64,000 nt of DNA, taken from assembly GCA_023920165.1 (NCBI GenBank), contig CP089275.1:1426001-1490000 (forward strand). The letters are read 5' to 3'. Below, piece by piece: positions 4,599 to 31,563 of the stretch (positions within the stretch are counted from its first letter, which is position 1; the number at the start of each line of letters is the position of its first letter). The notes under the pieces are model-generated. The model saw only the letters and a list, made by a program, of their open reading frames with translations. It made no database searches and was not told the DNA's origin. This DNA comes from Curvularia clavata (taxonomy: Eukaryota). The position numbers and the translations under genes are program-made.

Positions 4599-5600
4599 CT
4601 ACCTAACAGCTACAACTGGAACATCTTCCTTCTCGACATCGGTGCCACTGCCACTGCCACTGCCACTGCCAATTTCTGCCGCCATGTGTACGTCATCATG
4701 AGGCTGAATCAAAGTGCCATCAATCTTCATGCTAGCACCCTGATCGCGAAGGAGCTTCGCCGGAGGTGTAAACACGTATGCGCCCATGGCAATGATCATG
4801 GGGACTGCATCGAGCACAACCACATAGACTTCGACTGTGATGAGCTTGCCTCTCCATCCCTCAGCCAGTTCGATGCTTCGGTAGACACCTCGCATGATCA
4901 TCATAGCTGCCGCAAGGACCGTTACGCTCACCACACGAAGCATAGGCTTGTTCTTACGGATTCGAGGTGCGCCGCGCCAGACAACGATGCTGAGAATACA
5001 GCTAAAAATGCACGTCAAGACCAGTTGGGCGATAATACCAACGACCATTGTTGTTGTGCCTGGTTGAGTGGATTTTCCAGCCTGATATGCGGCACCGGCG
5101 AGGCCACCACCTGTTGCTTGGAGGGCTAGGCATACGATGTCAACGCACGCGCAGATGAGGAGGTAGGTTCGAGGCGGCAAAGGAGAAACGTCGCGACCCA
5201 GGAGGACGATTATAACCCAGAGAGTAATGTAGATGCCGGCTTGTGTCCACGCGGGGCCTGTGTTCGTGTTAGCCTCCTATGGACCCTACTTATTGATGTT
5301 TACACACGTACCCATAATCAACACCGCAGTCTGCATGGTAAACAGAGGCCGCGAGTACGAGCAGGTATGCCCTACCGCCCTCGCAATCCACCCCAAACTT
5401 TCCAAGCCAGAACCAACAACAAAGAAAATCATCCATGGGGTGCGGTATCTCCACATCTGGAAGCCATGTGCGATACAGATAAGACCAAAGATGATGACAA
5501 AGGCAATGGAGAGCCCCAGGTTGGGTCTATAGCCGTACTGGCTAGGATAGTTTGGGTTGTACTCGGTGCATGCTGGAGGCCACTGTGCTGGAGACGACAT
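4599..5600 (-). CDS. RTA1/Rsb1-family lipid-translocating membrane protein
   Basis: YGYRPNLG start, ESLGWIAR, DIVCLALQATGGG, RGVYRSIELAEGW and VLDAVPM are typical RTA1-family motifs. One intron at ~5250-5310. Confidence 0.9.
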
Positions 5601-5939
5601 GGCGTAGGTTGGACGAAGAACTTCGTTATTTGGGCGTATGAGGCACGTAAAGCAGGGGCAGAGTTTCCAGCGCCAAAAAGTGTCTAGCTGAGATGGTTTG
5701 GTCTCCTGGGACCAGAGAATATGGGGGATAGAGCCGTGTCTGTTGAAACTTTTACGAAGTGGCTTGCTTACATCCCTCCAGCTTTGTAGAGATTGCGACG
5801 AGAGGAGCTGCCAAGCAGGTGAGTGAATGAGAGACGGACCGAGCCACCGAAACCAGCTGTGCGGCAGCTCCGCCTCGTCGCCAACGGTTGTTATGACGAC
5901 ATTAAAGGAATTTGTTGTATGCCATGCACGAAACTACAA

Positions 5940-5949
5940 AAAGTCGCCG
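5940..5949 (-). promoter_or_regulatory. Cluster motif CGGCGACTTT (RTA1/hydrolase divergent promoter, copy 1)
   Basis: aaagtcgccg on the + strand, the reverse complement of the motif that recurs upstream of all cluster transcription units. Confidence 0.65.
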
Positions 5950-6005
5950 TGAGTGGTCGAAGGGGGGGGTCGGTCCAACATATACACGCCAAGCTGTTGC
6001 ATGTT

Positions 6006-6017
6006 TCGGCGACTTTT
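6006..6017 (+). promoter_or_regulatory. Cluster motif TCGGCGACTTTT (RTA1/hydrolase divergent promoter, copy 2)
   Basis: Exact 12-mer also present at 26658 and 29606. Confidence 0.7.
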
Positions 6018-6750: not shown

Positions 6751-7692
6751 ATGAGATTCCTATGCCTTCACGGCATGGGTACAAACTCGAGCATCTTCGA
6801 GACCCAGATCGCGGGAATGTGTCAGCAGCTGCAGGACCAGGGCCACGAATTTATTTTTGTGGACGGCCTAATTGAATGCGATGCAGCTCCAGGTATGGCT
6901 ATGATTACTTTTGTATTTCGCAATTTTGCTGCTTCAGGGATGCCTCGTGTCCGCAATGAAGTCAGTCATGCGCAAGTGTCACATCATCAAAGCTAACCAA
7001 TGACTGCAGGAATCGGATCCTTGTTCCCCGGGCCGTACCTCTGTTACTATGACCTCCCAACTCCAGAAAAGGTTCAGAGTGCATTTGATTATATCAACGA
7101 GGTGATTGAGGAGGAGGGTCCGTTCGATGGTGTTTTCGGTTTCTCGCAAGGAGCTGCGCTAGCCTCGTCGATGATGTTGGAGCACTATAAGCGCAACCCA
7201 CTTGACGACCTTTTCAAATTCGCAGTGTTTATTGCGGCCTCGCTTCCCTTCAATCTTGACGACACCACAGGAATGAGACACTGGGAATCCGCCGTGCGCA
7301 AGGCGATACAAGGCGCACCGGCCGCTTTCGGAGGCGAATTCGCAGGTGAGCTCATAGTCGATGAGGGCAGCGGTAGCAGCGAGGATGAAGACAGCGAGAC
7401 GCACACTCGTGGATTTCCCCTCAGACCTTGGATGTTGGGCACTAAAACATTGCTTGGGAGGTATCACCCTAGCAGGGACAAGGTCAGAATCCAGGTGCCC
7501 ACACTACATATTATGAGTGATGTGGACCAGTATCTGGCGCAGAGTGAGAACTTGGTTAAACTTTGCAATTCTGAATTGAGTTCAGTCGTAAAGCATGATG
7601 CTGGACATCGAGTTCCGCGGAGCAAGGACTTTGAGGTCAAGGCAACAGCAGGCTTGGATGCAGTAGTGAGATCCTCACTGATGAGGACATGA
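6751..7692 (+). CDS. FSH1/LovG-type serine hydrolase, probable polyketide-releasing esterase
   Basis: MRFLCLHGMGTNS N-terminus, GPFDGVFGFSQGA nucleophile elbow, PTLHI...D and HDAGHRVP (Ser-Asp-His triad). One intron at ~6893-7009. Confidence 0.9.
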
Positions 7693-7923: not shown

Positions 7924-9255
7924 TCATGCCTTCACGAGAAGAGAGTCAGCCGACCCACGCATCTCCTCCCTCGTCCTCTTGATTTCCACCAGGAGCTCAG
8001 AAACTTCCAGTCCACCAAGAGGTTTCATAGCCCTTTGCATCCCGATGATCGCATCTCGGCCCCCAGAGAGGTCGCTGAGCATCGAGGCCAACCTCGCGAG
8101 GTGGAAATCCATGGTCGTCAGCTGTAAAATCGAAGTTAAATGATTGGCTGTGACGCTCCTGCCTGCGCCCATCGAGCCACCAGACGGATCCATTGGATGA
8201 TGTAAAATATTGGTTGTAGGTCCACCACCTGTACCGGGCCCAGGCGTCTGACCCGCAACCGCGAGGTCCGTGCAATCGGGATTGGGGCTGGCGGCCCATG
8301 AGTGGGTACGGCCGAGCAAGCGATAGATGTCTAGTAGCATAGCCACCCCCATCAACGCCAGGACAAACATTGCGTGGGTATCCTCATGATCCATTGGGTG
8401 TTGAGGTCGTATTGTCTCGTTTTCGGAGGATTTTCCAGATATCACAGCGTGGAGGATATCGCACAGGCTGGACGCCGATTCGAAAACCTCCTTGCCCGGT
8501 CTCACTACGTACTCTTCCGTTCCGTAAATTCCGGGGATACACCAAGGCCTGTTGCACTCCTGTCGCAGAATGAATAGCAGTCTGGATAGTTGTCGATAAA
8601 CATCAAGTGGCAGTCCGCTGCCATCGGTGTGTGGAAGCAAACCCAAGGACTTGTCCGGCACCTTTGAGTGTTCGGAGATGGGAGGGGTGAGAAGAAGTGG
8701 TTCCGGTTTTGGCACGTGGTTGTGATGTTGAAAATAGTTCATGCTGGAATCGTTGCTAGGTGAGTAAGGGAGTGACCTGTATACCAAAGAGTCAGTTTAA
8801 TTGATCCATACTGGGTGGTGATACAAAGCGGCGACGTACGCAGATGTGGAAAAGTTTGCAGCTTGATTCTCCAGGATGAATGTGAAGTCGTGCTGGGACA
8901 TCATGTCAAAGTCATTGTCGGGTAGCTGAAAGGTATCATGCTGTGCCGGCTGTGGCAGCGCACCTAGGTCGCTCTGGGAGCAGCTTCGCGCTGGGGTAAG
9001 TGGTCTCTGTTCCTCTCTCTTTTCTGATACTGATGCTCTCTTCTGTGCAGCAGATCTTGATGAAGTCTTATCTGCTGCTGACCTGTCTTTGGCCCTCCGT
9101 CCTGCCTTCCTCGGCCTTCCCATCTCGTCTCTTGGGCTGAAGATGCAAACCCTCCCTGTGCCCTGGCAGTTGAGACAAGCTCCCGGCGCATTGGTGGTAC
9201 ACTTGATTTTACGGTCGTGACACTCATCACAGGCACTCCGGTGCAGTGATTCCAT
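7924..9255 (-). CDS. Zn(II)2Cys6 transcription factor, probable cluster regulator
   Basis: CDECHDRKIKCTTNAPGACLNCQGTGRVC binuclear cluster followed by basic MGRPRK. A second exon is provided by ORF 7924-8787. Confidence 0.88.
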
Positions 9256-10221: not shown

Positions 10222-11401
10222 TGGTAATTCTATGCCAAGCGTTTTTTGCGAGGAGTCCTGGATTGATATCCTAACACATTCCCTGGCAAACTCGCTTTGC
10301 TATATGCAGCATGTGGTTATGTTGATGTTTCACCACAGGGTTGTTGTTTTAGAGAGTGACGGAATTGCCGATGCCCCCTCTGGCCTAGCTGTCTAGACAA
10401 TCCCCTAAAGTACCGTTGCAACATTGTATCGCCGCCGTGAGAATATCATGATACATTGTCGAGGTGTCAGACTTATTCAAGGCTTCCAAGTGGATTAGTG
10501 GAGTACACGTGCGTAACGGCTAGGAAGTACCTGTTGGGAAAAAGTGGAGTGTAAGATGAATAGATGAGTCTGGCCGGCAGGCCGGGTTAGATGCTGTACT
10601 AGTCCGCTTCGGGACATCGATGGCCCATATGGCTGCTTCCAACAACAGTTCCAGGTTCCTGGACGTTAGGCCACAGCATGACTCACGTAGATTGACTTGC
10701 ATCCCATTTTGGCCCAATAAAAATCCCAGTCTACCATCATCGTATTCGGGGTTGGGAAAAAAATGCTGTTCTTGTGGTAAACATGGTATCCTATGATAAG
10801 GAAGCTCTCGCGAAATATTACGATTGGTCGCAACCCCCTCGCCCCTCCTACAATCCCATCTGCCGACTACCTAACAATTAAGAAAGTTAAAAATTAGTAC
10901 GATGGCTGGAAAATAATGGAGCAATGCATTTCTAGTGAAGACGCTTAGCCATTTGAAAGTAGGCTAATCTCACAGTACGGCGTACTTGCATTTGTTATGA
11001 AAGCGTACTGCTGAACGGCTTCTGGCCCCCACGTGGCCCCCAACCTGGCGTCCTGTTAGCCTAACAGCTACGAAGTACGGAATACTCCACCTTACTGTTG
11101 GTTCCACCCCAAGTGGAGGCTAACACAACTTGCGAGTCCAAGTTTAGTTCAGCTCGATCGCAGGGTTTAGGTTTTCGCATCCCAGGTAGCGTAACATTCG
11201 GCTCTCAACCCTATAATGTCGTACAGTAATCAATCGGAAAACAGGGACGCAGGTACTAAACTCAAAGTTCTTGAAATGATATATATATCAATCAACGCAA
11301 GATCACCGTGTGTTGACGTTTTGTCTCAACAAAAGTTATGAGGACAAGCAGTTGGGGCACTTCTCTGTCACTTGACGTCGCGATCGCGGGTGCGTAAGGA
11401 T

Positions 11402-11413
11402 TCGGCGACATTT
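11402..11413 (+). promoter_or_regulatory. Cluster motif TCGGCGACATTT (TF/MFS intergenic region)
   Basis: Identical 12-mer at 24453, upstream of the PKS. Confidence 0.7.
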
Positions 11414-12033: not shown

Positions 12034-14291
12034 ATGACCAAGCAATCTCTCGAAGAGAGTGAGGTGCACATTGCAAACAGGGAGATGTCCGATTCGGAAA
12101 ACTCGTCGAGCCACGATGGGCTGGACATTAACAAAGAGATGGATGAAGCAATCGTTACTCCGAAGAGCTTCAGTCCAAAAGTCGATGCGACGGTTTTGGC
12201 TAATAGCAGTACCCAACAACTGACTGAGATGACCATGGATGAAAAGAGATTTGCAGCGGACCAACAAGCCCACCTACCACATATCGAAGGAGTTCGACTG
12301 TGGATACTAATTGCCGTGTAAGTCTCGCAGATAACCGCAAGCGACCTGGACTAACTGTGGGATGCGAATAGTCTGGCAACGGGCCTTCTCATGTCGTCGC
12401 TAGAGACGACAATTATAGGGACAGCCCTGGTATCTATTGGCTCTGAACTAGGCGACTACAGTCGGTCAGCGTGGGTGGTGGCTGCATATCTGATAACTTA
12501 CACGGGTAAGATTGCTGTCTTGCATCAGAGAAGCTGACCATTGCCTGTCTGACATGCGCCGGGGTGCCAATATAGGTTTTCTTATCATTTTTGCGCGCTG
12601 TAGTGATATCTTTGGCCGCAGGTCAGCTTTCATGGTTGCACTCGTCATTTTCACTGGCTTCTCGCTCGCATGCGGTCTGGCCCAGACTATGAGTCAGCTG
12701 TAAGTTCTAGAATGCAAGAATTAGCTTGGCGCTGACAGCGTGTCTTTCTAGGATTGTCTTTCGGGCCTTTCAAGGCGTTGGGGGTGGTGGATTGTACAGC
12801 TTAGCCATGGGCATTGCGACTGAGGTTCCGGGACCTGTGAGGTCTCCCATCAATGGCATCTTGTCGTCTACCTTTGCCATATCCAGCGCCATCGGGCCTC
12901 TTCTTGGAGGGGCCATCGCCTCAAGTTCGAGCTGGCGCTGGGTATTCTTGCTGAAGTAAATTGGATCTGGCCATATGCACATGATACCTGCTGATTTCTT
13001 TCACAGTGTTCCGGTTGGAGCTACAATATTTGGTATCGCCTTTTGGTTCTTCCCCAAGAACTCAGTTCCTCTTAACATCACCTTTAGAAGCCTCCGCCGG
13101 CTCGACATTCCTGGTATTGTACTCTCACTAGCGGCCATTATCTGCTTGATCTACTCGCTCCAGCAGGGTGGATTGGTACTGGCTTGGGATAGTGCACCCA
13201 TAATCACAACTCTCACAGTACAGGGAGTATGCTGGATCGCTTTCATCGCATGGGAAGTTTATCTTACGAAAATGGGCAAGCGATCCACTATGCTACCAGT
13301 CTGGCCAGCACGCTTGTTCGCAGGCAGGGTGATCGGAAGCGCGATGCTGTAAGTCCACGTTTCAAAGATTATGAAAGCAATGATGCATCGAGCTGACTTT
13401 GTGAATAATAGGACTTCGTTTTTGAGTGGTTTACCATTCATGACTATCATCGTCTACCTTCCTCAGAGATTCCAACTAGAAAATGGTCTCTCCCCGGTGG
13501 GAGCCGGAGTTCGTATGCTCGCATACCTGCTCATCTCATCCTTCGCCGCCGGCTTAGCTTCCGTCATCTATGTGATCAAGAATGTGTTGTTCCCTTTCAT
13601 TGTTGTAGCGACCGGCCTACAGGTGATTGGGCTTGGGCTGATGTCTTCACTGTCATCCTCTTCGGGGGTTCAGCCCCAGCAATACGGCTATCAGGTCATT
13701 CTTGGTTTGGGATTTGGTATCAGCTTGAGCTCGCTGCCCTTGATTGCCAGGCTGCAAGTGGGACCAGAGGACCATGGTGAGTAGTTCGTCTACTTGTTCA
13801 CGAATTTCGTGGACATCATAATGCCCGTGTTTTATTTATCTGCTCAAGAATTACGCTGACAAAAGACAGCCGTGAACATGGGCGCAATTACTCAGATTCG
13901 CATTCTTGGTGGAGTGATTGGCGTGGGGATTGGAGAAGTTATCCTTTCATCCCAGGTGTGGTCATCGCTTGGAGATATTTTGAGTGCCGACCAAGTCAAA
14001 CTTCTGTTGAAGAGCGTGTCGAACATTAACCGCTTCACTCCTGAGCAACAAGCTGCTATCAGGAGAAGTTATGGAGAGGCTTTTAACCTCCAGTTCAGAA
14101 TTATGACCTACATCACTCTGGTATGCTTCGTTGTCTGCCTGGGCTGTTGGGTGAGGAATCCGATTGAGGTGAGGGATATGGAGAAGATTGAGACACAGCG
14201 AAGGGAGGACAAGGTTGCTGAAATCCTGAGAAACAAACAGCAGGATGAGGAGAAACAAGAGACTCCAAGTAATGATGAGGTAAAAGCATAG
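12034..14291 (+). CDS. MFS drug:H+ antiporter (DHA2, 14-TM type)
   Basis: SSLETTIIGTAL, FARCSDIFGRR (motif A), FRAFQGVGGGG, GPLLGGAI...SWRWVF and YLPQRFQ. About 6 introns. Confidence 0.9.
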
Positions 14292-15575: not shown

Positions 15576-18500
15576 CTATGCAGCCTCCGCGAGAACTGCA
15601 GCAGGAACACACTTCGACTTCTCCACCATCGTCCTAACCAACTGACTGATGGGAACATTGCTGAGCAGCTGGAACACGGAGATGTCGGCTTGGATCTCGG
15701 TGAAGATCCAAGAGCGAATCTCAACTGCGAGGAGAGAATCGACACCGTACCGATTGATCGGTCTCGTCGACTCGATATCCTCTACATCTACCATGAGCGA
15801 CTTAGCCAGCTTCCGTAGTAGAGCCATGGAGACGATATCGCAGGCAGCTTCCATGCTCGTCGCCTGTGCGAGCAGGATCTGAAGCTGCATCGTATCTTCC
15901 TCGGTCTCCATGGTCACCTGATGCGTGTCCACGTCCTTAATGTGCGCGAACTTCGCGTCTTCAAACCACCACGGGATCTTGAACCCAGCGAGGTTTGCCA
16001 TTCCTCCCGTTCCGAGACCGGTGATGAGTTGAGCTGGGATCTTTTGTCCGGGTGCACTCTGTCCTTCGATGACGGACTGGACCAGTGCGTGGACTTCCTT
16101 CTCACGGAGACCGGCGAATGACCACTTCTTGGTGTTTTCGGCAACTTCTTTGTTGGATGTTTCGGCGACGTAGCCAACGTCGAGAATCATTCCCAAGTCG
16201 ATGACGCCGGCATTGAGGCCCAATCCGCGACGGTAATTGGCGAGTGCATCTTGGAAAGAGTTACCGGCAGCGTAGTTACCTTGGCCTCGAGATCCGGCAA
16301 TACCAGCACTCGATGAAAGCATTACGTAAAAGTCCATATCCTTGGGAAGGTACTCGTGTAAGTTCCACGAACCCTGAACCTTGGGCAATACAGCGCCGAG
16401 GTATTGTTCATGCGTCATGTTCTCATAGATGGAATCCTGATATCGTCAGTCACTTGCTTCAGTGGGAACGGAGTTTGACATACTTTAAGAACCATGGCTC
16501 CCTGAATGCAACCCTTGATTGGAGGGAAGTTCTTTTCGCATTCCGCGACGACCTTCTTCACCTCCTCAGGATCGCTGACATCGCAAGCAAAAGCACGGAC
16601 CCTGGCGCCTTCCTTTGCCAGAGCATCAAGCACAGCGCGAGCCTCGGGCTTCTTGTCTCCGGATCGGGAGAGGAACACGATGTTCTTGGCGCCTTGACGA
16701 ATCATCCACTGTGCGAGAGATCGACCCAGACCGCCTAGACCACCGCTCAAGACATAAGTGACGTCTGGCTGGAACTTCATCCATTTGTACTTGGGGGGCA
16801 CAACCTAGCAAAGTTAGACGGATGCAACATTCGATGATGGATGGTTACTTACTGGTACCAAGTCCTCGTCGTGTGCCTCGAAGACGATCTTTCCAACGTG
16901 CTTACCGATCTGCATGGTTCGGAAGCCTTCCTCAATCTTCGAGAATGGCATAAAGGTCATGGGGTCCACCGGTGCCACGATTCCCTCTGAAAGCAGTCCC
17001 ATGACTTCCTGGAAGACCTTGGCGCAGATCGGAGTTGCACGCTGGAGGAGTGCGACTAGATTGACGGAGTGGAAGGAGATGTTTCTCAGGAAAGGAGACA
17101 TATCAAGCCCAGTATTGCTCTCTACAAGTAATCGTTAGCATCAAAGATCTGAGATAAGCAAACCAGCATAACCGCTTACCAATGTCTTTCTGGCCCATCT
17201 CAACGAAACGACCGAACCAAGAAGTGCAGTGCCAAGTCTTGCGAAGGAGGTCACCAGCAAGAGAGTTCAGTACCACATCAACACCCTTCTTGTTAGTCAG
17301 GCGCATAATACCGGAGACAAAGCTATCATCTCGAGAGTTGAAGATGTGGTCTTCTGGAATGCCGTAGTTCTCCATGATGAGCTTCTTCTTTGCATCCGAA
17401 GAGACCGTAGCGAAGATCTCGGCTCCAATATGCTTGGAAAGCATGATTGCGGCTTGACCAACTCCACCAGCGGCGCTGTGAATCAAAATAGATTCTCCCT
17501 TCTTGAGGTTGGCAGTGTTGGAGATTGCGAACCAGGCCGTGCTGAAGATCAAAGGCATAGAAGCAGCAGTACCAAAGCTAAACGCCTCTGGAATAGTAAC
17601 ACACATCGACTCGGGACTGCGAGTGTAGTTGCAGAAGGCTCCAACAGTCCAGGTCATGACCCTGTCACCAATCTTGAACTTCGTAACATCGGAGCCGACG
17701 CGACTGACGACACCACTGCAATCCAAGCCGAGTGCATGCTCCTCGAGTTGACCCATGGCGATCATGATATCCTTGAAATTGAGACCAACGGCCTTAACCT
17801 CAATCTCAACAGTGTCAGGGGCCAAGGGAGTCTCGTATTGCGGGTCGTCGCCAAATTGAAGAGAGTCTAGTCGACCCGCAGTCTCAACTTGGAGCGCCAA
17901 TGGTCGCCCAGGCTGCTTGAAGGGTGCGAGTTCTGGTTTGGGCTGAACGTGGAAGCTGGAGAGAAGGTCGTTCATGCCCTTCTCGAGCAAGATTCTCTGG
18001 ATCAGAATCTTTCCGTCGCGAATGGCATACTCCCAATCAGGCCTGACCTCTGAGCCAGCCTGGAGACCGGAATGGTAAACCTCGCAGAACTTTTCGACGC
18101 TGTTAGAGCTATCCAAGGGGCTGTTGAAGTCCATGTCGACTGTCAACAGGGCGACGGATGGATTCTCGGCACGGATGCAGCGCGCCATACCCGTCATGAG
18201 ATTGTTCTTTGGCGACTCGCTGTTGATGGTTGCGCCACGCGTAATCCATGTGGAATTAGCGGATTTCAGGATGAGGTTCTTGAGACACTCAAAATCAACC
18301 TTGTTCACTGTCGGTAGAAGGGCGTTGTCGGAGTCGCAGTCCAACGCAAAAATGCACGAAGTCTTCGAAAGTTCGAGCGCGGCTGTGTCTTTGAGGAGGC
18401 AGAGGTCAACAACCGTCCCTTCCTTCTCCTTCAAAGCGGCGACTGATTGGTCAATGAAGCTTCGGAGCTCCTGACTGGGAGCCTCCGGTTGCACGAACAA

Positions 18501-21500
18501 GATGTGGTTCTGAACCGGGATCGTTGGAACCTCGGCCACTGCTGTCGATACCATGACGGAGTAGAAGTGATCTTTCGGGTCCTGGATGTCTTGCATAGCG
18601 AGGTCGACTCCGCTAAATGCGTTCCTCTTGAGAACCTCATCCCATGTGGATTCGGTCATTGTTGGGCCCCATTCACGACCGTCTTTCTCACCGGCCCACC
18701 AGCCGTCGAAAGAACCAACGATCATGTGAATGCGAAGAAGAGGATTGGTGATCTCGCTGAGAACCAATTTGCCATTACTAGGTTATTTAGCTACGTCTGT
18801 TTCATGATCAAGGGTGGGTTGAACTTACGGCTTGAGAAGTTTCTTCACATACGACAGGGTCTGGTCCATGGACGGTGTAGCGTGGAGAACGTTTGCAGCA
18901 ACGATTAGGTCATACTCACCCTCCTTGAAATTTTGGGTTACTGGGTCTCGCTCGATGTCCAGGGCAGCGAATGTCATCCATGGAAGCCAAGACTTGAACT
19001 TCTCGTGCGCCTTGTCAAAGAAACCAGTGGAGATATCGGTGAAGGTGTAGCTGGACATGCGGGGAGAAGTACCATTCTGGCCACCGATCGCTTCGAGTAC
19101 TGGTAGTGTTGCACCACCCGTACCAGCACCAATCTCCAAGATCTTCATAGTTGGATTCTTGTGAGCCAGCAGATCCACGTAGGAAGCCAACTGAGCGTAG
19201 GTCTGAGGACATCCAACACCGTATTGGTAGAAGTCATTCAGGTGGTTGTTCTTCATCAACACTTCGATTGCCAGAATCTCTCCCCTCATGATGGCAACGA
19301 GGTTCTCGCCGTGTTCGCACATGACTGCACCGTCGGTAGACCCTGCGGCGACGCGCTTGAGTAGTTCGGCCTCGTATTCTGGGGTCGAGTTCAACCAGTC
19401 AATCTCTTGGCTCTGATGAGGTACCGTGCGATCGGTAACACTCTTCAGGGTGCGTTCCATGAGTTGGTAGAACTTTTGGAAGTGCGGCTGGAAAGTTTTC
19501 ACCTCATCCTTGGAGCAGGTCTCCAGGACTCTTCGCATGTAGATGAAAGCAGCGTGCTCCAAATCACTTATGATGGCCGGATCAACTGATGGAAGCGCGT
19601 TTAGTGACTCCGCGCAGTGGCTGATGAGAGAATTCGAAGTCATCTTGCTGATGTCCTCGTCCCAGTGGAAGGAGGCGATGAGCTTTCTCATATTGCTAAT
19701 CAAAATGTTAGCCTTATCTTCAGTAATCGAGAGGAGTCATGTACTTACGCAGCTTGAGCAAAGCCCAGTTCTCCGTGCCTGAGAGCTGTCGATTTGATGC
19801 CCTGGAAGGACACCACTGGGGCAGTCCATGTGTCGTCAAAGACAATGAACGAACCTTGAGCATGCTCAAAGCCCTCATTCTCAATCGCGGCAACGCCGTG
19901 TAGGAGTTCTCCGGCCGAGGAAGGAATTGTCTTCGAGATGTAGAAGTTCTCAATCGACGTGGGAATAAGGCCAACCCTCAATTCCTCTTCTGCTGGAGTC
20001 GCTCCGGCCAGACCCATCTGGATGATGCAGTCAAGGGTACTTGGGTGGATCACATGAGGGAATTCAAAGTTCTTGGGCATCATCGCTTTTGTGTCGGGGA
20101 TCTTCAGTACGCAACGCGACTTGAAATGTCCTCGCTTCACGCCAACAAGACTCTTGAAGGGGCCCGAGAAGTTGAGACCGATTGTCGACAACGATTCGTA
20201 ATGCGCCTCTGGGTCGACAGTCTTATGGCAGCCAGCTTCAATGGCGTCAAAGCGTTGACGGAAATCCTCAGTGGCGAGCTTCTCCTCGTCCGCGAAGATT
20301 GGGTTCTTCTCCGACACGTATCGAACCCTCACAAGACCCGTACAGTTGAGGATCCACTCCGCAGAATCAAGCTGTCGGGACATGAGGCGGAACTCATCCC
20401 AGTCGGAATCGAGGGATTGCGAACCACTTCTCCACGGGCGCAAGCTCAACATGGTCTCAGTACCGGTATCATCAGCAGGAATTACAATCGCCTTGCCAAT
20501 GATGACATCCCGTAGCTCGTAGCCCTGTACCTCTCGATCCTTTGAAGCGCGCTGGGCAGCAGCTTCGATCGCGGCGACAAGCATACCGGCGGCTGGATAT
20601 AGGATGGTTCCCTGGACCTTGTGACACTCGACCCAAGGCATCTCGTTGAGCTTCATAATGTTGCGGAAAAGAGGCTCGATCGAGTTGCCTTGCGGGATAG
20701 CTGCACCCAGCAAATCGGTTCTTGGGTGATCGCGGAATCTGTAGTTCTTGGAGACTTGACTCTCACCCCAGTACTTGTTCTTGCGGTTCCACGCGAAGGG
20801 GGGGATATCAACAAGGAATCCATCCTTTCCGAGTGTTGCCTCATCTCGGTTTGCTTCGGCGATCTTGACTGGGTATCCCAATTGGAACAAACTTCCGACA
20901 ACACCGAGAGATGTGACTACGGCGTCTGTACCACGGGATAGAACGGAAAAGGTTGGAACTTCCGCAATCTTTCCACCCTCTGCCTTGATGATCTGCTTCA
21001 GCGGACCCTGAAGAGCCGAATGGGGTCCAAGTTCAAGCAAAACATCGACAAATGGCTTAGTAGTGCGTCTCTTTCCAGGGTTGTGGCGGCACAAACTCTG
21101 GACAGCCGACACAAAGTCCACCTCATTGACCATGTTCTTGACCCAGTATGCAGCTCCAAGGTCCTCATTCTCGATCATAGCACCGGTGACTGAAGAGAAC
21201 ATCTTGACCTTGCCAGATGTGGGCAGTGTCTCGATGTCTTTGAGCGACTTCAGATACAGGTCTGCAATGACCTCCATGTGGGCCGAGTGATAGGCGGTCT
21301 CCACCTTCAGCATTCGAGCAAAGTGACCGTCATTGTTCAACTTGATCTCGAGAGCCTTGATGGCAACAAAGTCTCCGGAGACGGTGGTCGAAGTAAGCGA
21401 GTTCTTGCAAGCGACCATCGCGTAACCTTCAGTAAGCGCGTCGATGTATGGCTGCACAGCATTTGCCCCAAGACCAGTGGCAAGCATAGCACCCCGTAGC

Positions 21501-23774
21501 TGGGGAGCGATGTATCTCAAGCTCTCTGAAAGGTGGCCACGGCGGTATGAGATGGTCCACGCGCTCTCGCGGGTGATGGCACCTTTGGCGTAAGCCGCTG
21601 CGATCTCGCCAGACGAGTGTCCAGCGACTGCTTCTGGAGTGATGCCCCAGGAGGCCAAGAGATCAATCAGAGCGACCTGCAATGCGGTACAGATTGGCTG
21701 ACTGAATTGAGGCGAGTTGATCTTGGACACGATTTCGTCTGCCTTAAACTCCTCAACAAGCGACCAAGGGCACCCGATCGACTTGAGGTGTGCATCGGCA
21801 TCTCGAAGGCTTTGCTCAAAGATTGGGTAGGCTCGAAGCTCTCGACCCATAGCATACCATTGGGCGCCTTGACCAGTGAAGATGAAACCGAGCTTCGGTG
21901 CTTTAGTGGTGGATCGCTTGGCTTTGACAGGAGGTGACTCCAGTGCCTCGACTAGCTCCTTTCCAGAAGCTGCCACTGCCCAGTTCTTCCATGGGAAAAC
22001 ACTGCGATGAGACGCCAGAGTGCGCGCAAGTTGGTCGAGGAGTTTGGCCTCTGCCTTGGCGCTCTTGGTGCCGTCAAGCTTCTTGCTGAGGTACTCGCGG
22101 TACATCGTAGCAGTTCTGTCAACACCGCTCTGCTCGTTCGAAGACCAGACAAAGAGCTTTGGCTGCGTAGGGTAACGACTGTCGTGGAAATAGTCTGGTG
22201 CACTGTCGCCATTGAGATTGAGGATGGAAGCCTGGAGATCGTTGATTGGAGTGAGACCAATACCGGAGTCTACACTCGAAGCTGGCGACGAAACCTCGCT
22301 GCTAGCGACCGTATTGTGGTTTGCTGTCAGTCCTCTGGCCTTGAGGAAATGATAAGCGTCATCAATGATGCAGTGAGCGTTGGTGCCTCCGTATCCGAAA
22401 GAGTTAATTGAAATACGGCGGGGCCCAGCTGACGGCCAAGGGATGAATTTGTCAACAACTTTCAGGTTCCAGTCATCCATCGGGATGCGGCTGTTTGGCT
22501 TGTCATACCAGAGGTTGGGTGCAAGTTCAGCCTTCTCAAGCGAGAAGACAGCCTTGGTAACTTGCGCCAAACCGGACGCACCCTCAAGATGGCCGATATT
22601 GGTCTTGATAGAACCAATCAAGAGGGGATCTCCCTTTGGTCGGCTCAGACCCAATGTTTTGGATAGAGCGGCTGTTTCTTGAGGGTCACCAGCCTGTGTG
22701 CCGGTTCCGTGAGCTTCGACGTACTGGGTCTCGTTGAGAGGAAGACCAGCGTCCTGGTAGCACTTGCGGATGAGCGCTTCCTGAGACTCGGCGGAAGGAA
22801 CAGTGATTCCAGGAGTGTTTCCATCCTGGTTCACGCCGGTGTTTCGGATGACACCACGGATGACATCGTGGTCTCGAATAGCGGCGTCGAGAGGCTTCAA
22901 CACAACGAACGAAGCACCCTCACCTCGAGCATATCCATTTGCCTTTTCGTCAAAGCTGTGGCACACGGAGTCAGGGCTCAGAAAGCCCAAAGATGTCATG
23001 GCAGTCATGACACCGCATGCAAGCATGCTGTTCACACCTCCAACGATCGACTGGCATGGTATTAGCATTTGTCAATCGCAGCTATTGTGCGTTCAACTCA
23101 CCATCTTGGATTCCTTAGTCCTGAGACTCTGGCAGCCAAGGTGCAGCGCAACCAAGGCCGAAGAGCAGGCCGTGTCAAGAGAGATGGATGGACCTTTCAG
23201 ATCGTAGAACCAAGAGACTCGGTTGGACAAAATGGCAGTACCAGTACCAACTCCAAAGTAAAGTGGGAGGTTCTCCTGGTCAGCAGCCAGCATCTCGCTG
23301 TAGTCCTTTGAGAAGCTGCCCACGTAGACCGACGTATCCGACCCAATGAGATCTTCCATTCGGAGACCAGCTAAGGCGTGTTAGCAAAGGAACTTGAAGT
23401 TCGGGGCTTTTCCACTTACCATTCTCCATTGCCTCGTATGAACATTCCAGTGCCATACGCTGCTGTGGGTCCATGGCAAGGGCCTCGTTTGGAGTGATCG
23501 AGAAGAAGGGTGCATCAAAAGCATCCACCTCAGTGTGGCTCATGTAATGTCCTCCTCGGAGATTGATTGAGCCTGACCTCTCATTGTATGGGTGATAGAA
23601 GGCGTCGATATTGAAACGATCCGCCGGAATCTCAGTCATCGCACTTCTGGCGCTTGAAATCAAGTCCCAGAGCTTCTCTGGGTTTGCTGCATCGCCTGGG
23701 TAGCGCCCTGCCATGCCAATGATGGCAATGGGCATGACGGGCTCATCTTCTGTGGTGTATTGTTGTGCAGACAT
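15576..23774 (-). CDS. Highly reducing iterative type I polyketide synthase KS-AT-DH-cMT-ER-KR-ACP (8 exons)
   Basis: KS: DTACSS, EAHGTGT, GHLEGASG. AT: GHSSG, AYHS. DH: HKVQGTILYP, HPSTLD. cMT: LEIGAGTGG. ER: IHSAAGGVGQ. KR: GGLGGLG, YAAGN. ACP: GVDSL. No C-terminal TE, R or NRPS domain. Seven canonical introns join the ORF segments. Confidence 0.97.
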
Positions 23775-24452
23775 GTTGAATTGCCGGGGATGTTTGAGGG
23801 GTATCACGAACGATTAAAATTGACAAGTGTTGATTCAGACATGTAAGTGAAGGATACGAGTAGGCTTTATGGAGAGCTCGTTTCCTGGAAGAAAGGCCGC
23901 CACGACTTCCACGGCATCGTGAGGCACGCAATACTAGCTACATCGATACTACTGTGGTTTCCCTAACCTACAATGTCTCGCTCATTTTGGCAATTGTCTA
24001 TGCCCGAAGTCCAGCCAGTACGATAAGGAATATCCCGTTCAATTGCGTATAGGTACAAGCCCTCCGTACTGTCGGAAATACTGCGGTCACGGTGACTTTT
24101 CCACATCTCGCTATTGTAAGCCTAACGAGATTCCTTATGTTCTCAGCCGGGGGCCAATTTGAAACATTCCAACAATAGTAAGCATTTCGGTCGAGGCTTA
24201 CACAAATTCTAACCGAGACTCTGGTCCTAGGCTCTTGGCCACTGTTGTGGCTTGCTATCCACATATCCCGAGCGTTCCCATGCATACGCTCCAGTGACCA
24301 AAGTTTCGGAACTTTGCTGACGAAGGAGCTGCAGAAGGATTCACATAGTTACATTTTACCAGCTTCCTGTTTGGCAGAAGATCCTACGGGTACTTTAAGT
24401 CACCAAAGTGTGCAGGGACAGGGGGTCTACAACGGGGTGGGAGTAAGCGAGC

Positions 24453-24464
24453 TCGGCGACATTT
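24453..24464 (+). promoter_or_regulatory. Cluster motif TCGGCGACATTT upstream of the PKS
   Basis: About 680 bp upstream of the PKS ATG and identical to the copy at 11402. Confidence 0.7.
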
Positions 24465-24899: not shown

Positions 24900-26294
24900 T
24901 CAAAATTTGCTAGTAATAAATTGAGTCGCAACAGTCCATCCAAAGACCAAAATCGCAGCCAGCCACTTGATGCCCCCAAACTGAGCATAGGTGCCGACAA
25001 CTCGGCTTAAAAGCCGTTTCTCATTGCCATAATGTAATACTTTCTTCTCCCACTGTTCAATCGTCAGTTCTCCCAGTATCACTTTCTCTAGTAGCAGTGC
25101 ATTCATTGCCGCTTGGTTAGCGCTAAGAGCGATGTGCGGCCGGAACTGGCTCAAAGCATCGCCCACGAAGAGCAGTTCGCCGCCAAAGAAGGATGCCTTG
25201 GGCATCTGAGCTTCGCTGACTGTTGAAATAAATGGCCGGTTCGTTTTCTCGATGAGTTCAACAAATGGCGCAGGGAGCACTGATCGGGCATACGCCTTTT
25301 GCCTCTCCCATGCAGCAGGGGCCATGGCCCCCGGCGGTATGGTGTAACGGTGCCTGTGACCGTCCTTGTCTGTCATTATGTCTTCAAACTCTTGAGTGCC
25401 TTCGGAGACGTTGTAGTACCAAACGAAGTTCAAAAGACGCTCACCCGGCTTCAGACTTCCGTTGCTACCAGGGATTATATATCTGATCGAGTCAGTTGGT
25501 ACGCTGATGCGATCTCACCTAGAGATTGAGGGTAAAATACTTACACCAGGATGTAATTGCGCTTCATTTTGAAGACGGTGAATCGGTCTCCGCATGTCTT
25601 CCTGGTTTCCTCAGAGACCTCACTCTCGACCACGCTTCCACGCCACGCAACGTAACCTTCATATGGCCTCTTAACCTTGCAAACGATGTCGCGCATTCTG
25701 GACGCCGATCCGTCGGCCGCTATCACGAGATCCGGAGTTAATGTGTCCTTGGTCCCATCCGTTACGTTTTCCACAACAATTGAAATCGACTTCTCATCGC
25801 CGACAATATTGGTGACGCGCTTGCCCGCATCGTAAATTGCTTGCCCATCCATATCTGAATGGGATGGTGGCTTTGGGCAGTAGTCACTTTTGAAGCCATC
25901 GAAATTTGCCCGGAGCCGGTAGTATAAAGTCGACCAGCCGGTCATGACCATTGGAAAGTCGATGAATCGCTGGACAGACGAGTCGGATTTGATGAATTGT
26001 ATGCCAGGACACGAGATTGACCATGAGTCCTCGATCAAATCAAATCTTTTAAAGTACTCCGCGGCTTGCGGTCCAGCTCGGATTCCGGCTGCTTCACTAC
26101 TTCGCACGGAAGAAGGGTCCTGCTCAAGGATCCTGACATTGTGGCCCATTCGTTTGAGCATGATTCCATTCATCAAACCTGCGAGAGAACCGCCGATCTG
26201 GATGGTATTAAGACCTTGAAATTGCCTTATCCTAATGCGCTTGGAGACTTACTATGACAACGTCGAGCATCTTCTTCTCTCCGAGATTCGCCAT
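24900..26294 (-). CDS. FAD-dependent monooxygenase (2,6-dihydroxypyridine hydroxylase-like group A flavoprotein)
   Basis: VVI|IGGSLAGL Rossmann motif, DLVIAADGSAS (DG motif), YEGYVAWRG and FVGDA...RPH (GD motif). Two introns. Confidence 0.88.
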
Positions 26295-26657
26295 CGTGCT
26301 TGATTTTGGTGGGGTATGTAAGAAGACTATCGATCAAGCGATCATGGATGGGAACTCAGACGAATGCCGAACTCTTGGGTTAATGAGTGTAAGATTCGTG
26401 ATGACAGATTACTGTCAGAAGGGTTGGCCTTAATCACGGGTGTATGCGAAAGAGGCGTAGTTCAGCCTTGTCTATGAAGAAAACCGTAAAATCATTCGAG
26501 CAACAGGCCACTGGAATCTCAAAAGACGACATTCATTGTATTTCCCAGTAGAGTATTCTACCCGAACTTTTCCAGTGCAGTATCACAATACCTGGAGGCG
26601 GATCGGTAGGATAAGACCTTTCGGGGTTGGGGGCCAGTGGCTTATCGATTGCAGCAC

Positions 26658-26669
26658 TCGGCGACTTTT
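26658..26669 (+). promoter_or_regulatory. Cluster motif TCGGCGACTTTT upstream of the monooxygenase
   Basis: About 365 bp upstream of the monooxygenase ATG. Confidence 0.7.
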
Positions 26670-26782: not shown

Positions 26783-27655
26783 TTACCGCAATCCACCCCC
26801 GGCAATCACGCTCTGCCCAGTGACATAGCCCGTCTTTGTAAACATGGTAACCACATTTGCGACCTCATCAGGGTCTCCTAGACGTCCCAAGGGAATCGTT
26901 CTCACGGTATCCGGGACGAATGTAGCACTAGGGATCATCCCTGTATTCCCAATCATTGCTGGCGCGACATCATTGACCGAAATGTTGTACTGGGCCAATC
27001 TCGAAGCGAGATTCTTCATCATGCCTGTGAGACCTCCTTTCGAAGCCGCATAATCTAGCGCATGCGATTAGCAGTGATTCATGGACGTTGAAATATTGTG
27101 TAAACTTACGACAGCCGTTGATTCCACCTCCCGAGGCTGCGATGGAGGAGACGAAAATGATTCGTCCCCAGTTATTCGCCTTCATACCATCCACCACCCC
27201 TTTCACGAGCAGGAACGGTGCCCTCAGATTCACGTTAAATGCCTGCTCAAATTGATCCAATTCTATGTCCTCGATGTTGACGATTCGCTTCCCATACCCC
27301 GCATTCGCGACGAGTATTTCTACTGGTTGGGGATGCTGCTGTTTGACCTCTTTTAAGAGTTTCTCGATTTCAGTGGAAGATGCAAGATCCACCTTGTGCA
27401 TTGAGATGTGGATGTCGCAAGGTGCTGATTTTTTGAGTTCGAGTACCAACTCCTGAAGCTTCTGGAGATTCGTCGAGTATGTAAGGGCGAGATTCACGCC
27501 TTCAGCTGCTAGCTGACGCGCGCATGCCCCGCCAATACTGTTAGTAATTTTGTCAGCCTGAAAATAATATTGAAGGTTAAGCAGATGATTTCATACCCGC
27601 CAGACGCTCCTGTAATTAATGCTAGTCGCCCTTTCACTCGCGTCTGCTCCGCCAT
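26783..27655 (-). CDS. Short-chain dehydrogenase/reductase (FabG-like)
   Basis: LITGASGG|IG, ANAG, GRIIFVSS, YAASKGG and PLGRLGDPDEVA...YVTGQ. Two introns. Confidence 0.9.
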
Positions 27656-27967
27656 ATCCACAGGTTTTGCGCCGATATTCAAGAGCGAGTAGAAGAGAAA
27701 ATTAAGCAGCCAGCCAAGGCTACTGAGTCCGTTCGCCGTCTTTTTGCTGATGGCTGTTGTCCAGCCAGGTGAGGAGTTCTGATTGTTCTGGTACATCGGT
27801 CAAGAGTGAGAGTACAACAAAGCTTCGACCGGGAATCAATATCAAGACATTCTTTCCCACTTCCCTACTTGAAAGATATTCATAGCATTCAAAGGAAGCC
27901 TTAGTTAGATTCTCCGGTGTTACTTCCGCGTGCTTACTTGGTTCTTCGGGTATTTGGGTTGGGTGTA

Positions 27968-27978
27968 TAAGTCGCCGA
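27968..27978 (-). promoter_or_regulatory. Cluster motif variant TCGGCGACTTA in the divergent SDR/SDR promoter
   Basis: taagtcgccga on the + strand. Confidence 0.55.
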
Positions 27979-28153
27979 GCGAGCGGCGCCCAGGGAGCGC
28001 CATGCAGTTGTCAGTCTGTATACGCCACAATACACAAATATCATCAACAGTTATTATTCAAACTTGCCCAATACAATTTTTCATGTTACCGATTTGAACT
28101 AATTCAAAAACAACTTCAAGGTTACCAGCCAGCTTTGCTCTGAATTGGAGGCA

Positions 28154-29236
28154 ATGGTCGACCAGAGGAAAAGTGTCCTAATCACGGGCTGCAGCCCTGG
28201 TGGAATTGGCCACTCTCTTGCTCGCGAGTTTCACCGTCAAGGCGAGTGCTTTATTCTATAATTCAAAACTCAGTTCAAATGTATGCGCATTCTGACGCGC
28301 AGCAGGCCTCCGTGTTTTTGCGACCGCTCGCAAAGCCGAAACACTCAAAGACCTCGAGGCTCTCGGAATTGAACCCGTCTCTCTCGAGGTTCACAAACCC
28401 GAAAGCATTCGTGAACTAAGAGCGGAAATTGAGAGACGCACTGGAGGCAAACTCGACTATCTTGTCAACAATGCCGGTCGAAATTACACGGTACCCGCGC
28501 TTGAAGTCGACTTCGACGAGGTAAGGGACGTTTTTGACACAAATGTCATTGCAGTGATGAGGATGTGTGTGGAATTTTCACCACTCCTGATCAAAGCGAA
28601 GGGAACAATCGTGCAGATTGGAAGTTTGGCGGCATTGATGTGAGTTCATTCTGGCTAGGCTATAGTCTTGTGCTAATCAGAAACTTGTAGTCCATATCCA
28701 TTCGGAAGTGAGCACCATATTCCTTGAGAATTGAGTTCAAAAAGTCATACTGACGCATTTGGAAGGTACCTATAACGCGGCAAAAGCAGCATTACACGCT
28801 TACAGCAGTACACTACGCCTCGAACTCTCTCCTTTTGACGTCAATGTCATCACAGTCTACACTGGCAGGGTCAAGTCACGACTTGCCAGAGTAGAGCGCA
28901 CACTACCGGATGGCTCATTGTACATGCCAATAAGTGATGCGTACGAATCGAGAGTGAAGCATGGAATAGATGACTCGATGCCAGCAGATGACTATTCCAG
29001 ATCTGTAGTCGCACAAATCTTGAAGCCAGCCGCGAAGGGTTGGATCTGGGAAGGAAGATCGAGCTGGTCCGTGTGGTTTATGAGCAGCTTCTTGTCGCAA
29101 CAGAGACTGGTGAGTTGAACTGTCATGTGAAGTATTTGCAGACACTAATTTTTGCTAGCAAAACATATTTGCGGGTATCTATAATTTCAAGGCCCTCCGT
29201 GGTAGTATTCACGAGGAGAAATTGGTGGACATTTAG
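28154..29236 (+). CDS. Short-chain dehydrogenase/reductase, Ayr1 (1-acyl-DHAP reductase)-like
   Basis: MVDQRKSVLITGCSPGGIGHSLAREF, GLRVFATAR, LDYLVNNAG and TYNAAKAALH...LRLELSPF. Four introns, the first GC-AG, plus a 17-nt micro-exon. Mostly missed by the ORF track. Confidence 0.88.
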
Positions 29237-29605
29237 GTGATATTTCTTTGCGGTGGGGCCAATTCAACAACAAGTTGTATCTAGACTTAGAAAGTATATC
29301 ACATTTACTTTCATGATGCGAATACAATTCGAATTTTTTTAACAAAACTACGAATTCTTTGCTTTTGCACTCATGTCTGGCCATATGAACTGTGACTTTA
29401 GAAGTTCATGATGCCAGCCTATTTTCCTCGTAATCTGCAAGGCTACTTCACAACCCGATGGGAAGGAACCGCATCCAAAAGCAGAGTTGCACTAGTATGC
29501 GAGTTTCATTGGTTATTTCAGTCTCACGCCCAAGCCTCCGGATAAGGATGAGATAGCGAAAATGCGGATTGATGTACCGCTCGCATTACTAGGCATTTTG
29601 ATTTC

Positions 29606-29617
29606 TCGGCGACTTTT
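29606..29617 (+). promoter_or_regulatory. Cluster motif TCGGCGACTTTT upstream of the P450
   Basis: About 270 bp upstream of the P450 ATG and followed by a further CGGCGG. Confidence 0.7.
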
Positions 29618-29878
29618 TCGGCGGCGTCCAGCAACTCCGAGTCGGCGCTCCATGCATCCACGGAGCGCCTTACATTTAGCGGAACGATACGCATTTAGTG
29701 ATGACGGATGAGAGTTTGAAATGCGCTAGCATCGAATTCGGTGGTATCGCACCTGCAACGGGCGATACCTCTACGTCCCAATGGTGATGTCCTGCCTACA
29801 ATAGGCGACACCTCCACGCCCAAATTCAAGAGCAGTCAACACTTCTACAGTTTGATTCGACATTTGCCAGCTACCAAA

Positions 29879-31563
29879 ATGCAGCTGTTTAGCATGCTCG
29901 AATCTCTCCCGGTCTCTCCCTGGGCTATTGCCGGGATTGCCTTTGTCCTCTACTGGACGGGAGTCTACATCTACAGACTCTACTTCCACCCTCTTGCAAA
30001 GTTCCCCGGGCCAAAGCTCGCAGCCGCATCATTATGGTACGAGTTCTACTACGACTGCCTCTGCCGAGGCCAATACCTCTTCAAGATTAAAGAAATGCAC
30101 GAGAAGTACGGCCCCGTGGTCCGCATCAACCCCCACGAGCTTCACTTTTCAGATCCCGAGTTCTTCAATACTATTTACAGCCAGACAGAACGCCGTGATG
30201 CCTGGCACTGGAGGAAGAAGGGTTTCGGTATTGATGTGTCTACTCTGACTACGCTCGAGCATGACTTGCATCGAAAGCGTCGCAGTGCGCTCAACCCTCT
30301 GTTCTCGAAGCAGCGCATCGTCAAGCTGCAGCCAGTCATTCAGAACAGCGTTGATGCGCTAGTTGAGAGGGTCAGACAAGCTGGTATCAAGGACGAGGTC
30401 ATCAATCTGAAATTGGGTTTTGCTGCTCTCACAGCTGGTAAGAAACACTCGCCGAGTCCCATCTGAAAGCAAGAAGACCAGTACTGACGGGAACGACAAC
30501 AGACGTGGCAATGGATTACTTCTTTGGCAAGTCCCAAAACAAGCTGTCCGTGCCAGACTTCGATCCCCAGTTCCACGACGCAATCCAGAGCGGTTTCAAC
30601 AACATGCTCTGGATGAACCACTTTCCTTGGGTGATGGACACTATGACCACCGTGGCACACTACACACCCTCGTGGGTCATTAAGACGTACTTTTCTGGCG
30701 CGCGCATGACAACCTTCATCGCCGCACAGAGAGACATCACCATCCAAGTGCGCGAGTCCCTTGGCAAGATCGCTCCCGCGAAGGAAGAGTCCGCCAGCCA
30801 CACCATGTTCGACCAGATCCTCGCCTCGAAGCTACCACCAGAGGAGAAGTCCTTCCGGCGCCTCGTCCAGGAAGGCGGACTGATGGTCGGCGCCGCGACT
30901 GTGAGCACAGCCTGGTCTCTCAGCGTCGTCGCATACTGCCTCGTCGCCCATCCCCGTGTACTCAAGAAAGTCAAGGAAGAGCTTGCTCAAGCCTTCCCTG
31001 GCGGGCCCGATACAATGCACAGTCTCTCGACACTGGAACACCTCCCTTACTTCACCGCCGTCATCAACGAAGGTCTCCGCATCGGTATCGGTGCCTCGCA
31101 TCGCTCCCCACGTATCTCGCCTCACGCGGGAATCTCCTTCACAGACCGAAAGACGGGAAAGAAATGGTATGTACCGGCAGGTACGCCAATGTGCATGTCG
31201 CACCCGCTCTTGTTCCGCGACGCATCCATCTTCCCTGATCCGTACACGTTCCGTCCTGAGCGCTGGATCGAGAATCCGGGACTGGAGAAGTACCAGTTTG
31301 CTTTTAGCAAGGGTACGAGAGCTTGCATTGGTATCAACCTCGCTTGGGCCGAGTTGTATCTCATGATTGCCCATCTGTTTGCTAGGTTCGGCAGTGAGGG
31401 CTGCGAGGCAGAGGGCGATATCGGTAAGCTGGTTCTGTTCGAGACGGACAACAGCGATGTGGAATGTGTGGGTGATGGAGGTGTCGCATTGGTGAGACCG
31501 AGCTCCAAGGGTATCCGGTTCCGAGTCGTGTTGAACGAGAAGGGTAAGGAGGAAGCTTACTAG
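29879..31563 (+). CDS. Cytochrome P450 monooxygenase (trichodiene oxygenase-like group)
   Basis: N-terminal TM then HPLAKFPGP, YGPVVRINP, EGLR (ExxR), FRPERW and the heme motif FSKGTRACIG. One intron at ~30438-30502. Confidence 0.93.

Follow-up and report, generated by a model that had tools for sequence, protein, structure and literature searches.

FSH1-type hydrolases such as LovG release chains in trans from highly reducing polyketide synthases (HR-PKSs). In the lovastatin pair LovB-LovG, the iterative synthase (KS-AT-DH-cMT-ER-KR-ACP) has no release domain and is accompanied by a PF03959 hydrolase with a Ser-Asp-His triad, and the same arrangement is found in the locus described here, a nine-gene HR-PKS cluster of Curvularia clavata at positions 4599–31563 of a 64,000-nt stretch of contig CP089275.1 (positions 1,426,001 to 1,490,000, forward strand; the whole stretch is called the window and all coordinates refer to it). 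Unlike the lovastatin system, the cluster has no condensation domain, no trans-acting ER (LovC), no second PKS and no acyltransferase, and the ER motif of its own PKS is intact. The likeness of the hydrolase to LovG is one of protein family and gene context, with the role of LovG taken as known, and not of direct sequence comparison.

Two further groups of described clusters come close. The brefeldin A (bref) and Sch-642305 (sch) clusters are reported to contain an hrPKS, a thiohydrolase, P450s, an oxidoreductase, a FAD oxidase and a transporter, and omission of the thiohydrolase abolished production (PMC9055631). The window cluster follows the same logic, with an hrPKS, a serine hydrolase, a P450, NAD oxidoreductases, a flavoenzyme and a transporter. 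However, SchPKS is described there as having no C-MeT domain, with two P450s in sch and four in bref (PMC9055631), whereas here the C-MeT is intact, the P450 is single and the flavoenzyme is a monooxygenase similar to 2,6-dihydroxypyridine hydroxylase (DHPH). Production of brefeldin-type and 10-membered lactones is reported for Curvularia species (PMC9777749); a cluster of the brefeldin/Sch-642305 type was nevertheless rejected for this locus, given the C-MeT and the one P450. For clusters of the PMA clade (phomenoic acid, acrophialocinol), the source describes release by a truncated nonribosomal peptide synthetase (NRPS; C-A), a trans-ER, and conserved RTA1-like proteins, one of which, AcrD from the acr cluster, provides self-resistance and conferred tolerance in A. 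oryzae (PMC11791885).

We consider it probable, at roughly 75 %, that the locus is a functional, transcribed and co-regulated nine-gene cluster of C. clavata or of a strain almost identical to it, belonging to an uncharacterised family whose conserved core consists of the HR-PKS, the FSH1 hydrolase and the P450. By nature it is an ordinary orphan HR-PKS cluster, well delimited and with no product assigned; such clusters are common, and its existence alone is no surprise. A Pfam scan and the translations of the open reading frames (ORFs) identified nine intact, intron-bearing genes between 4599 and 31563, in DNA of fungal character whose introns are short and whose GC content ranges from 0.42 to 0.56. 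Every in-frame stop within them falls inside a canonical GT..AG intron. Pfam assigned a family to 19 of the 24 stop-to-stop ORF pieces scanned from 4.6 to 31.6 kb; the five others comprise three exons of the MFS transporter, the N-terminal exon of RTA1 and the C-terminal portion of the transcription factor.

The HR-PKS gene (15576..23774, minus strand) is modeled with seven introns and a product of 2613 aa, with the iterative type I order KS-AT-DH-cMT-ER-KR-ACP. From 23813 to 15576 on the minus strand, Pfam returned in series ketoacyl-synt, Ketoacyl-synt_C, KAsynt_C_assoc, Acyl_transf_1 and PKS_DH_N/PS-DH and, for the C-terminal half, Methyltransf_12, ADH_N/ADH_zinc_N with the HR-PKS NAD-binding domain, KR and ACP_SdgA_C/PP-binding. 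The model is collinear with full-length homologues of 2611–2618 aa, and aligned to residues 21–2618 of the one from Lecanora helva. The motifs DTACSS, HGTGT, GHSSGE, HKVQGTILYP, ILEIGAGTGG, NVLHAT, HSAAGGVGQ, LSGGLGGLG, YAAGN and GVDSL were read in the translations, DTACSS being encoded by an exon in a third frame between two introns; every domain carries its catalytic or cofactor motif and is predicted to be active. The C-MeT exon aligned to the C-MeT of LovB through the ILEIGAGTGG and NVLHAT segments, in an alignment that also included PsoF, and the closest solved structures to the PKS are PsoA and LovB. The last Pfam domain is the ACP, which ends 12 residues before the stop codon at 15576; because the model finishes directly after it, the PKS has no TE, R or C domain, and Pfam likewise found none.

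The candidate for chain release is encoded by the FSH1-family serine hydrolase gene (6751..7692, plus strand; 274 aa, intron 6893–7009; Pfam FSH1 on ORF piece 6544–7692), an exon of which is 100 % identical to the C. clavata NCBI protein yc1106_02304. It belongs to PF03959 and its Atlas neighbours are all FSH1, which informs at the level of the family only. All 20 homologues that were aligned share the triad Ser93/Asp220/His247. Additionally, across fungal classes, an FSH1 gene lies one to four locus tags from the PKS gene in at least eight named species (Lecanora, Polytolypa, P. angulare, A. hancockii, Polycauliona, Teloschistes, Xylographa bjoerkii and Chlorociboria). Release in trans had been proposed in the original prediction and, since the PKS has no release domain, the natural reading, supported by analogy, is that this hydrolase is a trans-acting thiohydrolase that would free the chain.

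Four oxidoreductases are encoded on the side of the PKS with the higher coordinates. The FAD-dependent monooxygenase (FMO; 24900..26294, minus strand; ca. 425 aa, two introns) matched FAD_binding_3 and FAD_binding-like families (E 2e-37, on 24900–26248) and is DHPH-like, its sole PDB match being 2VOU, a 2,6-dihydroxypyridine hydroxylase (E 6.4e-13). The first short-chain dehydrogenase/reductase (SDR1; 26783..27655, minus strand; three exons) is classical and FabG-like, with adh_short on 26970–27590, the motifs TGxxxGxG, NAG and YAASK, and 3-oxoacyl-ACP reductases as its nearest PDB matches, which are generic. The second (SDR2; 28154..29118, plus strand) resembles 17-beta-HSD/Ayr1, with adh_short on two exons (28296–29118), the motif YNAAK and generic reductases as PDB matches. 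The residues immediately preceding the catalytic Tyr of SDR2 are encoded by a micro-exon of 17 nt; this exon corresponds to the letters between the joints 28639/28766 and was observed in three RNA runs. The P450 gene (29879..31563, plus strand; ca. 539 aa, intron 30437–30501; Pfam p450 on ORF piece 29720–31563) encodes the heme motif FSKGTRACIG, its alignment starts at residue 1 of the Pyrenula orthologue, and it falls in a 90% cluster that includes C. clavata yc1106_02310. This public model (781 aa) matches, at 98–100 %, both the SDR2 exons (28154–29114) and the P450 exons (29789–31560); orthologues of the P450 in other fungi are stand-alone proteins of 464–580 aa, and yc1106_02310 looks like a fusion of two genes, SDR2 and P450.

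The remaining three genes encode two membrane proteins and a regulator. The RTA1-like membrane protein, of the lipid-translocating exporter family (4599..5600, minus strand; ca. 315 aa), matched Pfam RTA1 with an E value of 1.9e-42 on 4599–5276, and a single GTACGT..ACAG intron, modeled at 5258–5311, excises its in-frame stops. The Zn2Cys6 transcription factor (7924..9255, minus strand; ca. 422 aa) matched Zn_clus (E 2.9e-7) in its N-terminal exon (8797–9333), the remainder matching no family; its intron is modeled at 8777–8839, with GTACGT..ATACAG as the candidate. The MFS transporter gene (12034..14291, plus strand; ca. 623 aa) has six introns. The original prediction, made from the letters alone, had listed an intact PKS with cMT, ER and KR motifs and no release domain, a Ser-Asp-His hydrolase, four oxidoreductases, two exporter types and a regulator, and each of these nine genes was recovered by the scan, with a weak match in the case of MFS_1; furthermore, the motif described below is confined to these genes, and spliced transcripts were observed for five of the six genes to which RNA was mapped.

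The upstream regions of the cluster genes share a sequence motif. The 8-mer GTCGCCGA occurs seven times in the window, always within the cluster, whereas dinucleotide shuffles gave 1.49 occurrences on average and never more than 4. Its sites have common flanks that extend it to the 11-mer AWGTCGCCGAR, with six matches in the 64 kb against 0.06 expected; all are intergenic and upstream of cluster genes, and there are none elsewhere. The copies lie in the divergent RTA1/FSH1 promoter (6005..6015, minus strand), upstream of both the MFS start (623 bp) and the transcription factor start (2146 bp) (11401..11411, minus), 678 bp upstream of the PKS start (24452..24462, minus), in the FMO-SDR1 spacer 363 bp upstream of the FMO start (26657..26667, minus), in the divergent SDR1/SDR2 promoter (27969..27979, plus) and 264 bp upstream of the P450 start (29605..29615, minus). 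After correction for the post hoc choice of word, any 8-mer common to six of the seven promoter regions appeared in 0 of 500 dinucleotide shuffles. In the cluster promoters, the classic CGG-N-CCG spacings were not enriched, and neither was the 7-mer AATGTCG alone (12 matches vs. 8.1 expected). The core TCGCCGA is a TCG-N-CGA palindrome and, judged by its letters, a plausible candidate site for a Zn2Cys6 dimer. The cluster appears to be co-regulated: a candidate regulatory motif of sharp definition is associated with all nine genes and delimits the cluster; since there is no copy near the Bax-inhibitor or TLC genes that follow, the borders originally proposed are supported.

Transcription was examined with RNA contigs from four runs of four studies, one an oligo-dT metatranscriptome and three labeled as RNA by guess. 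The contigs skip canonical GT..AG introns in the MFS, PKS, FMO, SDR2 and P450 genes. Six joints are listed for the PKS, each present in all four runs, and spliced contigs of 8.07–8.09 kb were found in two of them; the first PKS intron (23371–23419) is inferred, the six others being those observed as RNA joints. For the MFS gene, the joints 12314/12372, 12504/12575, 12699/12752, 12952/13004, 13348/13412 and 13775/13869 all occur in two runs, and two of them also in a third. Both FMO joints (25482/25545 and 26197/26253) were seen in two runs, and the oligo-dT metatranscriptome additionally shows one of the two; the P450 joint was seen in three runs, as was the SDR2 joint 28639/28766 with its 17 intervening letters. 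SDR1 is covered by RNA contigs, and has no joint among the 15 listed. The intergenic bin 14544–15204 had no RNA cover in the four runs. Segments without cover in some runs, such as MFS in X10, were not taken as silence. Because spliced contigs from four studies extend over the MFS, PKS, FMO, SDR2 and P450 genes, the cluster is clearly transcribed and not silent.

The PKS region was also found in 19 of 23 public runs among those listed, from 13 studies. DNA near-identical to that of the PKS (15500–24000; 55–100 % of sampled 31-mers) occurs in runs of these 13 studies that carry seven coded organism labels, one of the runs being an oligo-dT metatranscriptome of ticks; the cluster is therefore widespread in close relatives and also present in environmental RNA.

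Homologues of the PKS pointed to lichen-forming fungi. The best, among the matches listed or the cluster members, are 68–70 % identical and come from Varicellaria, Pyrenula, Lecanora and Alectoria; further homologues among the matches listed are from Aureobasidium subglaciale (58 %), Polytolypa (57 %) and Penicillium angulare (53 %), and the best matches are annotated as unnamed or 'hypothetical'. In a FastTree phylogeny of 73 KS-AT-DH segments, the PKS of the window groups with those of Varicellaria, Pyrenula, Lecanora, Alectoria, Aureobasidium and P. angulare in a clade of 14 rows with support of 100, and the Polytolypa PKS is sister to this clade (support 94). The genes of the core remain neighbors in these fungi, as judged from locus tags: in L. 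helva, P450 001956, FSH1 001959 and PKS 001960; in P. angulare, FSH1 012078, PKS 012080 and P450 012081; in Pyrenula, PKS 005091 and P450 005099; in Varicellaria, P450 001485 and PKS 001491; and in Polytolypa, PKS 04076 and FSH1 04079. The PKSs of A. hancockii, Polycauliona, Teloschistes, Xylographa and Chlorociboria are more distant, with the FSH1 gene still one to four tags away. Close counterparts of the cluster are the unnamed orthologous clusters of L. helva, Pyrenula ochraceoflavens, Varicellaria rhodocarpa and P. angulare, where the PKS is 53–70 % identical to that of the window and in one supported clade with it, and the P450 (54–69 %) and FSH1 hydrolase (39–41 %) are encoded a few locus tags from the PKS gene. 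All of them are 'hypothetical', none with a product.

No named Bipolaris or Alternaria protein was among the homologue matches listed, and the distribution is therefore patchy. A scan of JGI metagenomes with a PKS exon as the query retrieved 115 relatives, of which 80 were kept and none was orthologous, the best being 46 % identical over the full match or 54 % on a fragment of 427 residues. In the vicinity of the 80 kept loci there were only FSH1 genes (six loci, 26–36 %), MFS genes (two loci) and distant P450 genes (two loci).

From these data we propose the following scheme. The iterative PKS, whose domains can be read directly, would be programmed to build a reduced, ACP-bound and probably C-methylated chain. 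The FSH1-type hydrolase would then remove this chain in trans as a free acid or lactone, by analogy with LovG and with the bref and sch thiohydrolases. The four oxidoreductases (P450, FMO and both SDRs) would oxidise and reduce the released chain, after which the MFS transporter may export the product and the RTA1-like protein may shield the membranes of the producer, as AcrD suggests. The Zn2Cys6 factor would drive all the promoters through the near-palindromic TCGCCGA that was found in them. The product would thus belong to the methyl-branched, oxygenated acids or lactones. The RTA1-like gene is all that speaks for the 'lipid-like toxin' suggested in the original prediction.

Several observations weigh against this interpretation of the locus. 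Every chemical step is something that we infer. The motif emerged post hoc from a k-mer scan of seven upstream regions, and in a second control, with random segments from outside (overlap possible), 6 of 500 sets also reached six regions; its binding by the cluster's own regulator is presumed. RNA was mapped over 11900–31700, which comprises six of the nine genes (MFS, PKS, FMO, SDR1, SDR2 and P450); three of the four runs are RNA by guess only, though their spliced contigs argue for RNA, and contigs cannot rank expression. The Pfam match of the transporter to MFS_1 is weak (E 6.4e-4) and under the curated cut-off. The public C. clavata model of the PKS is missing among the 120 PKS matches listed, which range in length from 1940 to 5000 aa. 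Finally, linkage to the PKS in relatives was shown for the FSH1 and P450 genes, the two examined in this respect.

This last point leaves room for a smaller biosynthetic unit, made up of PKS, FSH1 and P450, to which the six other genes would be mere neighbors, as FSH1 and P450 are the two genes observed to accompany the PKS in other fungi. Nevertheless, the 11-mer is also found upstream of FMO, SDR1/SDR2, MFS and RTA1/FSH1 and nowhere else in the 64 kb, spliced FMO, SDR2 and MFS transcripts occur in the same runs as those of the PKS, and the gap of eight (Pyrenula) or six (Varicellaria) locus tags between PKS and P450 could accommodate a similar set of genes. We therefore consider a three-gene unit unlikely and favor the cluster of nine genes.

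It is also distinctly unlikely that this nine-gene cluster is the orthologue of one already characterised in MIBiG or the literature, whose product would then be known. Many papers on fungal biosynthetic gene clusters appear in subscription journals, and homologue names were available for only about a quarter of the database proteins. However, the pathway names found among the 120 PKS matches listed (LovF, azaB, alt5, mokB) are only automatic and go with identities of at most 52 %, the best named relatives of the P450 are sdnE-like or trichodiene-oxygenase-like (at most 39 %), and the FSH1 matches are all 'hypothetical' or 'serine hydrolase'. The literature searched, which covers few subscription journals and included work on nonenolides, liamocin and the expression of lichen HR-PKSs, yielded no characterised cluster of this composition. 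The status of the cluster as uncharacterised, as judged from homologue names and literature searches, is thus unrefuted, not proven.

The RTA1-like gene raises the question of a phomenoic-acid-like antifungal polyhydroxy-polyketide of the PMA clade, with RTA1 as the resistance gene, and the cluster motif is in fact present in the RTA1 promoter. PMA-clade clusters, in which RTA1-like proteins are conserved and AcrD is protective (PMC11791885), resemble the window cluster in several genes: both have an RTA1-like gene, a P450, a transcription factor, an MFS transporter and an hrPKS whose domains follow the same order. In contrast, the truncated NRPS (C-A) and the trans-ER described for that clade are missing from the window, where release would be of the FSH1 type and the cis-ER motif is intact, and we regard a PMA-like product as very unlikely. 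More generally, no NRPS, second PKS, aminotransferase or trans-ER was among the Pfam matches in the cluster, its gaps or its flanks. Clusters of the fumonisin/AAL type have an alpha-oxoamine synthase (aminotransferase class I/II) adjoining the PKS. A sphingoid-analogue cluster of this type was rejected for the locus, with no Pfam domain of an alpha-oxoamine synthase in the cluster, gaps or flanks. We agree with the initial assessment that the gene set does not fit the fumonisin/AAL, solanapyrone, alternapyrone, depudecin, betaenone or sordarial clusters, and add the PMA-clade and bref/sch clusters to those that do not fit.

Radicinin is unbranched and unsaturated, and requires neither C-methylation nor enoyl reduction, whereas the C-MeT and ER motifs are intact here. 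That the locus is the radicinin cluster is hardly credible for this reason and because its closest PKS relatives are in lichen fungi, Penicillium and Aureobasidium and not in named Alternaria or Bipolaris records, even though radicinin is cited from C. clavata (PMC12251194), a hydroxylase and a reductase are required late in its biosynthesis, the tailoring set here includes monooxygenases and reductases, and no link between radicinin and a gene cluster was found in the literature searched.

The orphan nine-gene cluster of C. clavata could have a wider meaning. We tentatively suggest, as a rather doubtful possibility, that the family to which it belongs is old and patchy (Lecanoromycetes, Pyrenula, Penicillium, Aureobasidium and Curvularia) and makes an undescribed methyl-branched hydroxy acid or macrolactone with membrane activity against fungi, the RTA1-like protein being the shield of the producer and TCG-N-CGA the switch of the regulon. 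If this is true, what a lichen cluster family, hard to study in lichens, produces could be reached directly through a culturable Curvularia that already expresses the cluster. The Curvularia copy is a possible stand-in for this family because its closest relatives are in slow-growing, genetically intractable lichen-forming fungi and, since the cluster is transcribed in public RNA data, its product should be reachable without any activation trick. The RTA1-like gene hints at a self-toxic, possibly antifungal lipid-like product. Such a product would add a further case to what was recently found, namely that clusters of this kind are marked by RTA1-like proteins.

The surroundings of the cluster are of a different nature. 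A scan of gaps and flanks (to ca. 4 kb; ORFs of at least 60 aa) gave Pfam matches for only 3 of 72 ORFs, with a PQ-loop piece at 1579–1911, a TLC-domain piece at 35506–35943 and a sub-threshold match to DUF6011. Downstream of the cluster, Pfam identified genes of Bax-inhibitor-1, TLC (ceramide-synthase-like), tyrosine-phosphatase-family and housekeeping type. The TLC-domain gene (35506–36539, plus strand; ceramide-synthase-like, LAG1 family) is situated ca. 4 kb past the P450 gene, after the Bax-inhibitor-1 gene (32914–33624, plus strand); it may be either the housekeeping copy or an additional one of resistance type. An open frame of 689 aa (38340–40409, minus strand) had no Pfam match at E 0.001. 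Farther downstream, with no evident link to the cluster, are an ORF with a fungal rhodopsin domain (43982–44467, minus strand) and an intradiol-dioxygenase-like ORF (Dioxygenase_C; 47268–48242, minus strand). Between 48242 and 57961 there is no ORF of 150 aa or more, and the stretch 52000–56000 is richer in AT (GC 0.42), with a strong GC skew that reaches 0.20 at 54–56 kb; it may be a degenerate repeat or a region affected by repeat-induced point mutation (RIP).

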